From NCBI GenBank assembly GCA_016432625.1, contig CP066697.1, positions 215,363-279,362 on the forward strand: a DNA stretch of 64,000 nt, read 5' to 3'. The position numbers were made by a program, and so were the translations under genes. The stretch comes from Candidatus Berkelbacteria bacterium (GTDB lineage Bacteria; Patescibacteriota; UBA1384; 2-12-FULL-50-11). How positions within the stretch are numbered: the first letter of the stretch is position 1; each line of letters opens with the position of its first letter. Positions 4,804-44,879 of the stretch are shown here, piece by piece. The notes under the pieces are model-generated. The model worked only from the letters and a program-made list of their open reading frames with translations, had not been told where the DNA came from and did no database searches.

Positions 4804-4916
4804 CAGTGGTGATGCTCCTCATTTTTACTGCGATCGGCTTTGCCTAAGAAAAACCAATAAGTCAGGATTATTAGGATAATTCCGGCTACGATGACGATAA
4901 GTTTGTCGCTAGTCAT
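4803..4916 (-). CDS. Unannotated 37-aa single-TM peptide ending in HHH ([37 protein letters not shown]), translationally coupled between copZ and copA
   Basis: ATG at 4916 lies 4 nt inside the copZ stop, and its TGA overlaps the copA ATG (TGATG). Hydrophobic core followed by a basic/His3 tail. Below the 60-aa ORF-track cutoff. Confidence 0.45.
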
Positions 4917-5148
4917 GACTTACCTCGGCTTTGTAACCGCTCGTTTCTTCTATCGCTTTGATTACGTCTTCGACGCCCAATTTATTCTCGTCGAATACAA
5001 TTTCGGCGGACTTTTTACCTAAGTTAACCTCAACGCTGTTAATTGCGTCGTAATCCTCCTCCAAAGTTTCTAGCAGCATAACGCAGCTGGCACAGTGGAC
5101 ATCTGGTATATAGAATCTTTGTTTTGTCATCGTTGCCTCCTCATTCAA
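4909..5148 (-). CDS. copZ: Copper chaperone CopZ (HMA domain)
   Basis: HCASCV metal-binding motif in a ~70-aa ferredoxin-like HMA fold. The true start is probably M7 (MTKQRF). Confidence 0.8.
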   Translation of the reverse strand: MNEEATMTKQRFYIPDVHCASCVMLLETLEEDYDAINSVEVNLGKKSAEIVFDENKLGVEDVIKAIEETSGYKAEVSHD

Positions 5149-40035: not shown

Positions 40036-40106
40036 CTCCCGGGCTTGGATTCGAACCAAGATAGTCGCCTCCAAAGGGCGGTGTCCTACCATTAGACGAC
40101 CCGGGA
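40036..40106 (-). tRNA. tRNA-Gln (TTG)
   Basis: Self-complementary acceptor TCCCGGG/CCCGGGA, D-stem GTCT/GGAC, anticodon loop CTTTGGA (stem with one mismatch). Confidence 0.7.
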
Positions 40107-40181: not shown

Positions 40182-40493
40182 TTAAACTGTTTCCTTATCT
40201 TCGATCCACTCTGTTTCGACTTTAAGCGGCCAGAAATGACCCTCATTGTTAATAACAAAAGCGATCTCGAAGCTGCGGTAACAGACAGTAGCGAAGCGTT
40301 TTTTGACCGGTCGACGCTCTGAAAGGTCAACGCGACCGATAACGAGGCGGCTCGTGCCGTTTGGCACGAAGACTTCGATGATACCGCTACCGCAGTTCTT
40401 GATCGAGGTGGCATGGTCGGGAAACACCAACCGAGCTGCCTCTTTCAATAGCCACTCGTTCGACGCGGTATAGGGACGTTTAAGGTGCTTCAT
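40182..40493 (-). CDS. Hypothetical 103-aa protein; GC hairpin (40154-40175) just downstream
   Basis: ORF with no recognisable motifs; hairpin CAGGCGGCC-ataa-GGCCGCCTG after the stop. Confidence 0.3.
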   Translation of the reverse strand: MKHLKRPYTASNEWLLKEAARLVFPDHATSIKNCGSGIIEVFVPNGTSRLVIGRVDLSERRPVKKRFATVCYRSFEIAFVINNEGHFWPLKVETEWIEDKETV

Positions 40494-40544
40494 GACACAC
40501 TCCTAACGGCGCCAATATACTCTTAAGCTCGGCAGTAACGCAAA

Positions 40545-41258
40545 AGCGCCTCCTTGCGGAAGCGCTTTTAGCGGAAACCTAATAAGCCGGGTTCTGTAAC
40601 TACCTTGCGGCAGCTCGCGAACATTAATCTAATGCGTTGAGACCAACTATTCTGTCTCGAGACCGAGACGGAGCTCGTTGTTCCTTTTGGGAACGATGAA
40701 CTTAATGAATAGCGGCCCGCTCAACTTGCACCACGCTGGGTTTAGCCACTCGCCTTATTACTAAGGACGATTGTGAGCTCTTACCTCACTCTTTTCACCT
40801 TTGCCTTTTCCGATTCAGTTAGGAAGGGGCGAACAAGTCGCCCAGATTAAGGGGACGGGTCGAATGAACTAGGTCTAGTTACAGGTCACGCTGACGATTG
40901 TTGCCTTGACTACACCAGCCTCGGCGTACATTCCTTGGCAACTGTTTTCGGCCCATCGTCTTGCTTTGCGATCGGCTTCTTGGCGGTTTTCGGCATCGAT
41001 CGACTTTTCCAAAGTTTTGATATAAGAACCATTCTCATTGATTGGTTCGAACACACCTGCCTTGGCTTTGCACGTGACTCGAATTTTAGCGGTTGCATTA
41101 AAGTACATGAATATCACCTCCTAACTGAACCGGACATTGGCTGTTTTGTTTCTGTGCCACTTTCCCTTGCCTTACGACAGCCAGCCGTTAGCTGGAGCGC
41201 GTCTCTATGGTGCCCGGACTTTCCTCACATTTTAAAATGCGCGATCGCGTTGATTTCA
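40545..41258 (-). ncRNA. rnpB: RNase P RNA (bacterial type A), interrupted by a ~290-nt insertion (40828-41116)
   Basis: P4 5' strand GAGGAAAGUCCGGGCACCAUAG (41235-41214); GGGAAAGUGGCACAGAAA; AAGGUGAAAAGAGUGAGGUAAGAGCUCAC (J11/12-P12); GGCUAAACCCA; P4 3' strand ACAGAACCCGGCUUAUU (40597-40581). Promoter TGGACT/17/TATAAT upstream and hairpin plus UUUUG terminator downstream. Confidence 0.75.
40875..41108 (-). CDS. 77-codon ORF embedded in the rnpB insertion (MYFNATAKIRVTCKAKAG...SVTCN), preceded by SD AGGAGG
   Basis: AGGAGGUG, then 8 nt, then AUG; basic soluble peptide with 3 Cys; the SD forms part of the helix closing the insertion. Confidence 0.4.
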   Translation of the reverse strand: MYFNATAKIRVTCKAKAGVFEPINENGSYIKTLEKSIDAENRQEADRKARRWAENSCQGMYAEAGVVKATIVSVTCN

Positions 41259-41326
41259 CGGAAATTATAGCCCAAATTATCGTGAAAGTCCACCGCTAGA
41301 GTGGCGATTTTCTCTTATTGTAAAGC

Positions 41327-41938
41327 TTAGAGAAACGATTGCCGGTGCAGCGTGCACGGTCCGATTTCACTGATTTTCTGGCGATGAAAAGCGGTGCCGT
41401 AGCCGGCGTTCTGGTGCCAGACGTATTCGGGGAAAAAGCGGTCGTAAACTTTCATCAGCTGATCGCGATAGACTTTTGCCACTATAGAAGCGGCCGCAAC
41501 GGGGTAGAACAAGGAATCACCGTGGGTGGCTCTAATGTATCGGCATTTGGTCGGCGGGTCGTAATGGTCCGTTAAGACCAGGTCGGCTTCAAATTCACTA
41601 AGAGCTCTTTGGTAGGCTAGTCGTAGGGCCTGGCTCAACCCGAGGCTATCAATTTCTAAGTGGCTAGCGTAGCCGAAACGGATTCTCACAACGGATCTAT
41701 GTATAATCTGAGCAACCTCTGCCCTGAAACGACGTTCCAGAAGTTTGGAATCGTTAACACCGGGAATCTCGGTTGCTATTTCAACTGCGGCAACAATCAC
41801 CGGCCCGGCTAATGCCCCGCGGCCAACCTCATCGACGCCGACGATTTCTTGATAACCTAAATCTTGAAGCTGTTTTAAAAGATGAAAATCAGGTGTGGAC
41901 GGGCTGAGCGGTCTTGGTCTTAGCTTTTTTGGGAGCAT
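41327..41938 (-). CDS. rnhB: Ribonuclease HII
   Basis: VGVDEVGRGALAGPV active-site motif (DEDD family), 203 aa. Confidence 0.85.
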   Translation of the reverse strand: MLPKKLRPRPLSPSTPDFHLLKQLQDLGYQEIVGVDEVGRGALAGPVIVAAVEIATEIPGVNDSKLLERRFRAEVAQIIHRSVVRIRFGYASHLEIDSLGLSQALRLAYQRALSEFEADLVLTDHYDPPTKCRYIRATHGDSLFYPVAAASIVAKVYRDQLMKVYDRFFPEYVWHQNAGYGTAFHRQKISEIGPCTLHRQSFL

Positions 41939-44759
41939 CTGCCTTTGACGATACCAGGAATTTGCCGGTTATCGACTGCGGGTTCTTGATAATTTCATCC
42001 GGCGTCCCAGTAGCCACGATGTTACCACCCTTTGTACCGCCATCCGGGCCAAGGTCAACAATCCAATCGGCACAGCGAATTACGTCGGTGTTATGTTCGA
42101 TGATGATCACCGTATTACCTCTATCGACGAGCTGATAGAGCACTGTTAGCAATTTCTGAATGTCCTCAAAATGTAGGCCGGTTGTAGGTTCATCCAAAAT
42201 ATAAAGCGTTTTGCCGGTCTCGCGTTTTGCGAGCTCAGTAGCGAGTTTAATGCGTTGTGCTTCACCGCCAGATAACGTCGTGGCTGGCTGTCCGAGTCGC
42301 ATATACTCTAGGCCGACTGACTGTAGGACGGAGAGTTTTTCCGTAACCTCAATTTCGCCATCGAAAAAGTTCAACGCTTCTTCAACCGACATTTCTAGGA
42401 CGTCGCTAATATCTTTGCCCTTGTACTTTATCTCAAGTGTCTCGGCGTTGTAGCGACGGCTGCGGCATTCAGGGCACTGGACGTAAACATCAGGCAGGAA
42501 ATTCATCTCAATTTTAATTTGGCCATCACCGCGACAGTGCTCGCAGCGACCACCGCGTAAATTGAAACTGAAACGAGATGGGTCGTAGCCGCGATTCATC
42601 GCTTCACTAGTGTTAGCAAAAAGTTCCCGAATTGGGCCTAGGGCACCGGTGTAAGTGGCGGGGTTACTGCGAGGTGTGCGGCCGATTGGTGACTGGTCGA
42701 TGTTGATAATGTTGTCTATCTCCTCCGTACCCTCGATACGTTCGTGCGGTGCTGGGTCGTCGCCTGATCCATGGAACTGATTTTCTAGAGCCCGGGCCAG
42801 AGTATCTTCTACGAGCGTTGATTTACCGCTGCCAGAGACGCCGGTGACGCAAATCAGGCGGTTGAGCGGGAACGAAGCAGTGACGTTTTTGAGGTTATTG
42901 CCTGTGGCGCCAACGACAGTTAGATAGCTCTCGGCATGTTCGTGACGGTGCTCGGGTAGTGAGATGGATTTTTTGCCTGACAAATAGGCACCCGTAACTG
43001 AATTTGGGTCGTTAAGGATCTCTTTCAAAGTTCCTTGGGAAATAATTTTTCCACCGTGCTCTCCTGCACCTGGTCCCATGTCGATAATCTCATCGGCACG
43101 CAGCATCGTTTCTTTATCGTGCTCGACGACAATTACCGTGTTACCGCGTTCTTTTAGCTCCTCGATAGTTTGCAGCAACTTGTCGTGATCGCGGGGGTGC
43201 AAACCAATTGACGGCTCATCAAGAATATAGATAACGCCAGTTAGCCCTGCCCCAAGTTGGGTGGCTAGGCGAACCCGCTGCGCTTCGCCGCCAGCTAACG
43301 TTGAAGTCGTTCGGTCGAGCGTGACATAGCTAAGGCCAACCTCAAGTAGATAGCTCAAGCGGGAGCGGATTTCTTTCAAAATAGGTACGGCGATAACCTG
43401 CTGTGAGGCGTGAACCGAAGCAGATAGTTCGGCGAAGAAATTATTCGCGTCCTCAATCGACATGGATGTGGCGTCAATAATGTTCTTATCTTTAATTCGG
43501 ACGCTGAGAACCTCTACTCTAAGTCGCTGGCCGTTACATGACTGACAGGTTTTCTCGACCATATATTTTTCAATCTCGTTTTTAAGATAATCGGAATCCG
43601 TTTCGCGGTAACGCCGTTCCAAGTTTGGAAGAATGCCTTCGAAAGCTTCCTCGTCGGAGTCGTTAGTGGTCTTTTCACCGTGGAGCAGGATATCTAAAGT
43701 TGCCTCTGGCAACTCTCCGACAGGGGTGTCGAGGCTGAAGCGGTATTTAGCACTTAAGTCGTTTAAGACCTTTTGATACCAATTGGCGTGGCTTGTCGTC
43801 CGACTCCAAGGGCGAACAGCACCTTCAGCGAGAGTTAGTCTAGGGTTAGGGATAACTAGGTCGCGATCAGCGACCATTTGCACGCCTAAGCCCTGGCAAA
43901 TCTGGCAAGCACCCTCGGGGTTATTAAACGAGAAGAGCCTCGGTTCAATATCAGGAAATTGCCAGCCACATTTGGTGCAGGCGAACTTCTGTGAGTAAAA
44001 TTCTTCTTTGTCGCCGTGGGAGGCGATTAATAGTCCGTTCCCTAACTTCAAGGCTCGGTCGACAAGTTTAAGTAGGTCTATTTGCGCCAATTGCTCTGAT
44101 TGGTCGTTACTAACGGGAAAATCGATAGAGCCAACTAGGAATTCGATGGTGTGTCGCTTGTTTTTATCAACCTCTAGACCGATTGCCTCGTTGATATCCA
44201 TTTCGACGCCATCAACACGTACACGTAAAATGCCCGACTTCTTGCCCTGCTTTAAGTGAAATTTGTGTTCTCCCTTACGAGCCTGGACGATCAGGGCATA
44301 CAAAGTAACTTTTAGAGTTTCTTCCAAACGGAAATGCTTTAGGATTGCTCGAGCGATTGATTCTGGTGACTGTTGGGTGATTGGGATATCGCACTTCGGG
44401 CAAAATGGCGTACCCACACGTGAAAATAGTAGACGCAAGAAGTCATAAATCTCGGTCGCTGTAGCAACCGTTGAACGTGGGTTACGGGCGGCAGTCTTTT
44501 GGTCAATAGCAATTGCCGGCGCTAAACCCTCGATGTAATCAAAGTCTGGTTTCTCAATTTCGCTTAAGAATTGACGGACAAATGAGCTCAGCGATTCGAT
44601 ATAGCGCCGTTGTCCTTCGGCGAAAATAGTATCAAAAGCAAGCGAAGATTTACCGGAGCCAGAGAGACCGGTCACTACCGTGATCTTGTTTTTGGGAATC
44701 TCTACCGTCAGATTCTTCAGGTTATGGGTTCTGGCGCCGACGACGCGAATGCTTTCCAT
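41889..44759 (-). CDS. uvrA: Excinuclease ABC subunit A
   Basis: Two ABC modules ([25 protein letters not shown]) and zinc-finger Cys clusters. Start set at M41 ([16 protein letters not shown]), the canonical UvrA N-terminus. Confidence 0.9.
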
Positions 44760-44879
44760 GTATGAACTGCCTGCAAGTCTAGCAAAAAAATATTGACACT
44801 TCAACCCCCTAGGGACTTGCAAATAGCCGTCTTTGGGATACAAAAGAAACAGTAATAAAAGGTAAGCACGAGGAGGCAT

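Follow-up and report, generated by a model that had tools for sequence, protein, structure and literature searches.

A probable intervening-sequence-like small-gene cassette in the P12 loop of RNase P RNA

How can the gene for a ribozyme hold a ribosome-binding site and an open reading frame (ORF) in its midst, and is such an arrangement a gene or an accident? The question is raised by rnpB, the gene for the RNA of RNase P, in a 64-kilobase (kb) stretch of contig CP066697.1 (the window; all positions below are window positions unless a locus is named). In the current study, we used covariance-model searches, RNA folding, and protein and metagenome searches to characterize an insertion in the P12 loop of this gene. 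We think it probable that the insertion is an exchangeable, intervening-sequence-like small-gene cassette, whose closing helix would both insulate the ribozyme fold and gate translation. By the comparisons given below, this rnpB is not alone in having the feature; the same cassette family is also found in helix 45 of 23S ribosomal RNA (rRNA). The host gene and the parts of the cassette are as follows.

40568..41260, minus strand: rnpB, RNase P RNA gene, bacterial class A (Rfam RNaseP_bact_a match)
40809..41134, minus strand: whole cassette including the closing helix, 326 nucleotides (nt), delimited by the Rfam gap, the fold, the inverted repeat, and the architecture of six relatives
41117..41134, minus strand: 5' strand of the closing helix, UCCGGUUCAGUUAGGAGG (fold and repeat search)
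40875..41108, minus strand: 77-codon ORF, AUG at 41108-41106 and UAG at 40877-40875 (ORF translation, the homologue P0002, codon usage, and AlphaFold2)
40827..40843, minus strand: GC hairpin GGGCGA-CUUGU-UCGCCC (GGGCGACUUGUUCGCCC), 6 base pairs (bp) (fold)
40809..40826, minus strand: 3' strand of the closing helix, CUUCCUAACUGAAUCGGA, complement of the ribosome-binding site (fold and repeat search)

The host gene scores 157.2 bits (E = 9e-49) against the Rfam model RF00010, whose gathering threshold is 100 bits, and the match spans model positions 1-367, including the complete conserved core. In the Rfam alignment, the P12 loop (model positions 136/137) holds approximately 300 extra nt; P18 is absent. 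Since the insert-bearing sequence is identical in two independent Logan assemblies (L001 and L002) and six other loci have the same architecture, the insert is not an assembly artifact. As judged from the flanking RNase HII gene, the host belongs among the Saccharibacteria/Saccharimonadales (Patescibacteria, the Candidate Phyla Radiation [CPR]).

A preliminary description of this locus had proposed that the insertion is closed by a helix of 16 Watson-Crick and 2 G-U pairs. We obtained the same 18 pairs in the minimum-free-energy fold of positions 40800-41145, and its arms were recovered independently by an inverted-repeat search. The segment has a fold z-score of -4.2, with none of 100 shuffles being as stable, and the arm duplex contributes -29.9 kcal/mol. 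The coordinates first given for the 5' strand (41134-41117) were correct, but the 3' strand had been described as 19 nt long (40827-40809), and the C at 40827 in fact closes the adjacent hairpin. That hairpin (40843-40827), which had rightly been said to follow the ORF, abuts the 3' strand with zero spacer. We rejected the hairpin as an intrinsic terminator; it has no U-tract, and termination there would remove the 3' half of rnpB. The inner 13 nt of the 5' strand, TTCAGTTAGGAGG (41129-41117), correspond to the conserved module of the cassette; within them lie the ribosome-binding site AGGAGG (41122-41117) and, in one reading frame, a TAG stop.

Is the ORF behind this ribosome-binding site a real gene? 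Its AUG lies 8 nt after AGGAGG, and the frame runs to 40875 with the translation originally reported. The list of ORFs starts the same frame at a GUG that overlaps the ribosome-binding site (80 residues); like the preliminary description, we favor the AUG, because all other cassettes have spacers of 5 to 12 nt. Codon usage places the ORF at the 22nd percentile of window genes, that is, within their range, and approximately 10% of spurious ORFs equal it. When 1.84 billion representative proteins were scanned in full with HMMER, a sole distant relative emerged, P0002 (83 residues, 32% identity, E = 1e-3). The two coding sequences align without gaps over 74 codons, with identities at the first, second, and third codon positions of 0.47, 0.58, and 0.23, respectively, the last being the random level. 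Their BLOSUM sum is 107, versus -2 ± 22 in a neutral simulation, in which such a value was reached in 0 of 2,000 runs. Because the third codon position is random while positions 1 and 2 are conserved, the window ORF is, on this substitution pattern, a real gene whose protein is under purifying selection. AlphaFold2, run on a two-sequence alignment, predicts a strand-strand-helix-strand domain with a mean predicted local distance difference test (pLDDT) score of 86.7. The product had been characterized as basic with three Cys residues, and this is the case (isoelectric point [pI] of 8.9); however, the pattern of Cys and VTC that had been pointed out is unconserved in P0002, which is a clear homologue.

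A perfect AGGAGG is unusual for this genome, because few long ORFs of the window have a Shine-Dalgarno-like motif. When first-ATG starts are assumed, any such motif lies upstream in only about 10 of the 49 long window ORFs, and GGAGG lies upstream in only 2. Several long window ORFs have a TAnAAT-like box 5 to 12 nt before the ATG, and we take these patterns to suggest that many window messenger RNAs (mRNAs) are leaderless or have short leaders.

Is the arrangement confined to this rnpB? The termini YTCAGYTAGGAGG ... hairpin-CCTTYCTAACTGAR are found at the identical P12 site in the window and in five other Saccharimonadia rnpB genes (L186, L188, L189, L199, and L005), and again in helix 45 of 23S rRNA (L083, representing contigs L083-L086), giving seven carrier loci. 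These were reached by different routes. The 23S rRNA fragments L083-L086, which encode P0002 in an insertion of approximately 370 nt in the helix 45 loop, were found via protein homology alone. L005 was fetched solely via rnhB synteny, independently of the arm sequence. L186, L188, L189, and L199 came from a metagenome scan with an 18-mer of the 3' arm, in which neither a start codon nor an ORF was imposed; the cassette occupies the identical P12 site in all four, with the same flanks. Rfam recognizes L186 and L189 as RNase P RNA, while L188 and L199, which have further expansions, are below threshold. The L083-L086 contigs are identical to one another within the cassette, as L001 and L002 are to the window.

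The 18-mer scan gave 20 matches, 4 of them real cassettes. The other 16 were rejected for lack of a 5' arm; 15 come from a conserved coding repeat unrelated to the cassette, and L183 stands alone. The 15 contigs with the coding repeat (L182, L184, L185, L187, L190-L198, L200, and L201) derive from a small number of related metagenome series; the repeat is tandemly duplicated in two of them and resembles a multi-copy mobile-element gene.

In the 23S copy, the 5' end reads ...RTTCAGTTAGGAGG, followed by 7 nt and a GUG start, and the 3' end reads ...GGGCAACUCCUGUUGCCC hairpin, then CCUUCCUAACUGAAUC.... Its 13/14-nt arms are identical to those of the window copy, although the third positions of the two ORFs are at the random level; beyond these arms, the stalks consist of different, mutually complementary sequence. 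The L083 fragment is interrupted twice more, by insertions of 61 and 158 nt (at about 40-100 and 740-900). The 158-nt insertion is missing from the near-identical L084, so that these rRNA genes are polymorphic for other insertions.

The array in P12 of L005 (4946-5794) contains three tandem ORFs, of 87, 61, and approximately 83 codons, within one closing helix. Each is preceded by its own copy of CTCAG(T/C)TAGGAGG, and the stop codon of ORF1 is the TAG inside the second copy; a single hairpin and a single 3' arm, CCTTTCTAACTGAG, stand at the end of the array. The resulting rnpB is about 1.25 kb long, and Rfam splits it into two partial matches of 65 and 39 bits, both sub-threshold. The array, in which the module is repeated without a partner arm, shows the 5' module to be a portable unit of stop codon and ribosome-binding site.

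All seven loci have AGGAGG, a start codon (ATG or GTG) 5 to 12 nt downstream, and one or more ORFs of 60 to 91 codons that end at or shortly before the hairpin; the hairpin itself precedes the 3' arm in seven of seven, with differing stem sequences. The ORFs cover 72 to 96% of each interior. An 83-nt untranslated tail in L189 folds at -42 kcal/mol, the tails elsewhere are short or fully structured, and the three ORFs of L005 tile its 850-nt insert with gaps of no more than 68 nt. The chance of such an ORF architecture is 0.7 to 2.3% per shuffled interior, and the product over six interiors is 6.5e-12. Among the loci with these termini, none has the insert without an ORF or without a Shine-Dalgarno sequence; such an insert is what the preliminary description had said would count against it. 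Its central proposal, that a genuine ribosome-binding site and ORF lie inside a structural RNA, is supported by the retention of AGGAGG, start codon, and ORF in all seven cassettes and from the purifying selection described above. As read from these loci, the order of the frame is the 13-nt module YTCAGYTAGGAGG, a spacer of 5 to 12 nt, the start codon, a variable ORF, a GC hairpin, and the 3' arm CCTTYCTAACTGAR.

Does the closing helix matter as a helix? Across the cassettes it is 18 to 21 bp long (-29.9 to -32.9 kcal/mol). Examination of its covariation, which had been recommended as a check, revealed 3 compensatory pairs and 2 one-sided changes among 4 distinct sequences, and 89% of helix cells are paired, versus no more than 55% when the register is slid. 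Relative to the main family, the arms of L005 show U-A -> C-G and G-C -> G-U, changes that are compensatory or wobble compatible. In computed ensembles, the probability that AGGAGG is unpaired is 0.003 to 0.006 in full cassettes (99.4 to 99.7% paired), versus 0.24 to 0.60 when the 3' arm is left out. In these models, the arm helix restores the continuity of the host helix (P12 or 23S helix 45) and buries the ribosome-binding site, which is more than 99% paired; the earlier suggestion that the site is sequestered by the very helix that restores the ribozyme is supported both by the compensatory changes and by the folds.

What does the frame carry? Cassette interiors are 41 to 50% identical, which is the level of random alignments, and this holds even for L186 versus L189, whose rnpB flanks are 91 to 95% identical. 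Among the nine cassette ORFs, homology is clear only between the window ORF and P0002 (z = 17.7) and marginal between the window ORF and that of L188 (z = 5.4). When the two-sequence profile was compared with the other ORFs by hhalign, P was about 0.02 for L188 and L199, and nothing was found for L186 and L189. The predicted products range in pI from 4.2 to 9.4, and the housekeeping DNA of the carrier hosts is mutually 68 to 78% identical. On these comparisons, the cargo ORFs are mostly unrelated within an invariant frame, and because they differ between hosts, a dedicated RNase P function is unlikely. The preliminary description had proposed a search for homologues inside other rnpB genes; five such genes do contain the cassette frame, but the clear homologue of the window ORF is in 23S rRNA and not in rnpB.

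Searches for known relatives of the cargo were negative. Word-indexed searches with the window ORF and with a P0001+P0002 profile returned only those two proteins, and a chimeric query made of four metagenomic cassette ORFs matched no protein. Scans of Pfam, of PHROGs (window ORF only), and of PADLOC (6 of the 9 cassette ORFs) gave no significant match. None of the nine cassette ORFs matches PF05635 (23S_rRNA_IVP/S23p), and eight are without any Pfam match at E ≤ 1; for the ninth, that of L199, the sole match was below threshold and pointed to an unrelated family. Profile searching of PDB sequences gave no match. Neither a known family nor a known fold was found for the window ORF product, nor any similarity to RnpA or an RNA-binding family. 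Viral contigs scanned with the window protein and with a 14-mer of the arm gave chance matches only.

The cassette is also distributed unevenly among related rnpB genes, of which the following are cassette free.

L003: minimal P12, rnpB of 372 nt
L004: ORF-less P12 extension of approximately 90 nt, no arm-like termini
L006: ORF-less P12 extension of approximately 85 nt, no arm-like termini

Given these states of P12, the loop is an expansion hot spot in the clade, and the insert is not universal. The L006 extension (about 4914-5035 of that contig) is made up of degenerate short repeats (GGCTTCTGGCTCCTAGCTACTGGCCTCTGGC...), reminiscent of cyanobacterial tandem-repeat P12 insertions. The distribution is sporadic: RnhB identity to the window is 54 to 62% and is similar for the noncarriers (L003, L004, and L006) and the carriers (L005, L186, L188, L189, and L199). 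L006 lacks the cassette although the 5' block of its rnpB is identical to that of the carrier L189, and the cargo of the window is closest to the 23S copy and not to any rnpB copy. For both of these reasons, at least some exchange or horizontal movement is required.

How might such a cassette be expressed? A candidate promoter stands immediately before the host gene.

41264..41292, minus strand: sigma-70-like promoter, TGGACT + 17-nt spacer + TATAAT, just 5' of the rnpB start

It is the sole promoter-like site on the minus strand in 40400-41500, and there is none within the insert. The cassette would be transcribed from this rnpB promoter within the RNase P RNA precursor, and translation would be possible only while the ribosome-binding site is free. 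One route would be cotranscriptional loading of ribosomes during the approximately 300 nt that precede synthesis of the 3' arm. The other would be loading after RNase III has cut the stalk, as with 23S intervening sequences, and such a cut would leave a two-piece RNase P RNA. Once closed, the helix would restore P12 and shield the ribozyme fold from any cargo, while recombination at the conserved frame could exchange the cargo or stack it. Excision by RNase III is plausible by analogy, because the stalk with its coaxial hairpin is longer than 2 helical turns and the 23S member is at the classical intervening-sequence position.

A number of points weigh against the cassette reading. The 64-kb window contains no RNase III motif, although the motif search covers the window and not the whole genome, and no recombinase, transposase, or target-site duplication accounts for mobility. 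The sample is small (seven loci and four distinct helix sequences), and in four of the loci the identity of the arm was enforced, these having been ascertained by an exact match to the 3' arm. Only one homologous pair among the nine ORFs is testable for selection. Moreover, synonymous sites are saturated at this level of host divergence, and fast vertical divergence could partly explain the unalignable interiors; the weak similarities of the window ORF to that of L188 (z score and hhalign) and of L199 (hhalign) are a hint of it. Even so, we consider the exchangeable cassette the probable explanation. A bolder version, possible although on balance we doubt it, is that the terminal loops of essential stable RNAs (P12 and 23S helix 45) serve Saccharimonadia as a modular platform dedicated to small-gene expression. 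The portable 13-nt module of stop codon and ribosome-binding site would allow small genes that have no promoter of their own to be exchanged and stacked within one closing helix. The 3' arm would then act as a one-shot switch, the precursor serving as mRNA until the helix closes or RNase III cuts and as ribozyme or rRNA thereafter, and the dosage of the cargo would be tied to stable-RNA synthesis.

Might it be translation itself, and not the protein, that selection maintains? A ribosome following the polymerase could protect an insert of 250 to 850 nt from premature (Rho-type) termination, from nucleases, and from misfolding, while the peptide drifts. This would fit the high ORF coverage of the interiors, with untranslated tails that are short or structured, as well as the tiling of the L005 insert. 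It would also fit ORF sequences that are mostly unrelated behind an invariant ribosome-binding site, spacer, and start, and a perfect AGGAGG of a kind that is rare in window genes. We nevertheless find it unlikely, given the purifying selection on amino acids in the window ORF and P0002 and the confident AlphaFold2 fold, which imply that at least the window cargo is a real protein; a motif search of the 64-kb window also found no Rho motif. The same selection and fold, together with the occurrence of ribosome-binding site, spacer, start, and long ORF in seven of seven cassettes and the minute chance product, make it scarcely credible that the insert is a noncoding P12 expansion segment with an ORF that arose by chance, even though extended helices are common in the RNase P RNAs of CPR bacteria (PMC8172020), the P12 extensions of L004 and L006 are ORF-less, and about one spurious window ORF in ten matches the codon-usage score.

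Two further explanations take the cargo or the termini as the point of departure. A lineage-specific accessory protein of RNase P, coexpressed with the ribozyme and binding the extended P12, is suggested by six rnpB genes in which an ORF is embedded at one and the same P12 site, and by the basic nature of the window protein. However, cargo is unrelated even among closely related rnpB genes and ranges from acidic to basic, L003, L004, and L006 have no such ORF, the only clear homologue sits in a 23S rRNA gene, and there is no similarity to RnpA or to RNA-binding families; we regard this explanation as highly improbable. A nonautonomous DNA transposon, whether derived from an insertion sequence or resembling a miniature inverted-repeat transposable element, might survive only in tolerant RNA loops, in which case the helix would follow incidentally from the inverted repeats, with the ORF as a passenger. 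Terminal inverted repeats of 13/14 nt that are identical across distant hosts and two host genes are what such an element would show, and the patchy distribution and variable cargo agree with it. Yet the flanks are mutually complementary and not direct repeats, so that there is no target-site duplication; the element is single copy in 64 kb, with no copy outside structural-RNA loops in any locus examined; and no ORF is transposase-like. The arm also doubles as stop codon and ribosome-binding site and is repeated without a partner in L005, which suits a translation module better than a transposase site, and a transposon therefore strikes us as quite unlikely.

Among known systems, which does the cassette most resemble? 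Bacterial 23S rRNA intervening sequences occur in helix 25 and helix 45 in Salmonella, Leptospira, Coxiella, and others, and some contain an ORF of the PF05635 family. Like them, the cassette occupies the loop at the end of a peripheral helix in a stable RNA that is essential, its termini pair into a long stalk that would preserve the host fold, its distribution is sporadic in a way that suggests horizontal spread, an ORF can lie inside, and one member of the family (L083) is located exactly in helix 45. The differences are that its host is P12 of RNase P RNA, which is outside the classical definition, that its ORFs are unrelated to PF05635, that the stalk itself supplies each of them with a canonical ribosome-binding site, and that the cargo varies by host and can be stacked three deep. 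Helix 45 of 23S rRNA is the classical intervening-sequence site, at which RNase III excises the elements, some of them with ORFs; in Coxiella, the ORF of the intervening sequence is apparently untranslated and decaying (PMC4990558). The Coxiella element has been shown to be excised by RNase III (PMC4990558), and the same has been proposed for short insertions in CPR bacteria (PMC11270868). Such excision is the defining behavior of an intervening sequence, and the cassette is likened to one from its sequence and predicted fold. With that qualification, the rRNA intervening sequence is the closest known kind, and we rate the cassette as an element of similar type that occupies a new host RNA, carries modular cargo, and has a ribosome-binding site in its stalk.

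Insertion sequences in CPR rRNA genes were reportedly described by Brown et al. in 2015. According to Tsurumaki et al. (2024), the CPR rRNA insertions are for the most part introns of group I or II that encode LAGLIDADG or GIY-YIG homing endonucleases, whereas those of Saccharibacteria are mostly short, nonintron insertions at 23S intervening-sequence sites; in that study, ORFs were classified via Pfam only, those with no Pfam domain being left uncharacterized (PMC11270868). These share with the present cassettes the same radiation, structural RNA hosts, and, in some cases, ORFs; the present cassettes differ in having no intron model match or Pfam domain and in occurring in rnpB as well as in 23S. 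We rejected a group I or group II intron: no Rfam intron family matched the insert or L083-L086 at permissive E values, and the ORFs have no LAGLIDADG, GIY-YIG, or reverse-transcriptase domain. With regard to RNase P RNA itself, Vioque is said to have reported in 1997 that short tandem repeats make P12 variable in length among heterocystous cyanobacteria. Lui et al. (2021) described RNase P RNAs of CPR bacteria that are diverged and extended, with no ORF noted (PMC8172020). In such RNAs, as here, P12 and peripheral helices tolerate large natural extensions, and the genes fall below Rfam thresholds (in the present set, L005, L188, and L199); those extensions, in contrast, are noncoding, with no reported ORF or ribosome-binding site.

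Bacterial RNAs with dual functions include SgrS/SgrT, RNAIII/hld, AzuCR, and VcdRP (PMC12612679). The likeness is that one transcript would have both a noncoding role and a translated small ORF, the latter being predicted in our case. However, the known examples are base-pairing small RNAs with one fixed protein of fewer than 50 residues, whereas the RNA considered here is a ribozyme, and its ORF belongs to a separable, exchangeable insertion with a ribosome-binding site clamped by the helix that restores the ribozyme. In Escherichia coli adhE mRNA and in phage mRNAs, cleavage by RNase III frees a ribosome-binding site that is sequestered in a helix. The cassette likewise has its ribosome-binding site occluded in a long duplex that is a plausible RNase III substrate; this is an analogy only, and the cassette duplex differs in also being part of a ribozyme helix. 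Integron arrays, too, have a conserved junction before promoterless, variable, stackable ORFs, and GTTAGGA / TCCTAAC resembles GTTRRRY / RYYYAAC. They differ in that the cassette has no attC-like imperfect palindrome for each ORF, and its inverted repeats enclose the ORF and do not follow it. An integron gene cassette was accordingly rejected, as GTTAGGA / TCCTAAC is off at the terminal position relative to GTTRRRY / RYYYAAC, no palindrome follows the inner ORFs of L005, and there is no integrase among the loci examined. In full-text searches of the literature, we found no precedent for an rnpB gene or RNase P RNA with an intervening sequence, an ORF, or a dual-function role.

If the cassette is translated, the precursor of RNase P RNA is also an mRNA, and if its stalk is cleaved in the manner of rRNA intervening sequences, the RNase P RNA of these bacteria is in two pieces. 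Should the platform interpretation hold, it would define a new class of genetic element, and a naturally occurring RNase P RNA would either double as mRNA and ribozyme or consist of two pieces. The element could then be of an undescribed type that uses insertion-tolerant loops and strong stable-RNA promoters in tiny CPR genomes. There are practical consequences as well. Genes such as those of L005, L188, and L199, which fall below the Rfam gathering score, may contribute to the "missing" RNase P RNA of CPR bacteria, and this would affect checks of genome completeness. The cargo proteins are nearly invisible to gene catalogues; searches of a collection of 15 billion proteins found only 2 of the 9 ORFs. 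Finally, a helix that clamps a ribosome-binding site offers a model from nature for the engineering of RNAs whose translation precedes their folding.

The remaining observations concern the locus and its host gene. The order uvrA-rnhB-rnpB-transfer RNA (tRNA) is common to the window and its relatives. A motif search of the 64-kb window found no RnpA. In the window rnpB, an extra hairpin of 32 nt is present in the P15-P17 region (40671-40702, minus strand; model positions 284-303), and the rnpB genes of L188, L199, and L006 have further expansions of 50 to 90 nt in other helices. The likely terminator of rnpB (40542-40569) comes right after its 3' end; there, on the minus strand, a T-run follows a GC-rich inverted repeat, AAAAGCGCCTCC/GGAAGCGCTTTT. 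A simple terminator scan of that strand did not flag it. Between this terminator and the tRNA (40036-40106) lies a 103-codon ORF (40182-40493, minus strand) with an AGGAG ribosome-binding site, gene-like codon usage (score of 0.167), and no Pfam match. Because in L003 the tRNA directly follows rnpB, this ORF appears to be a lineage-specific addition to the locus. On the other side, the uvrA ORF (41889-44879) overlaps the first-ATG start of rnhB (41938) by 50 nt (41889-41938, minus strand); since homology of rnhB to its relatives starts at about residue 15, its true start may be downstream.

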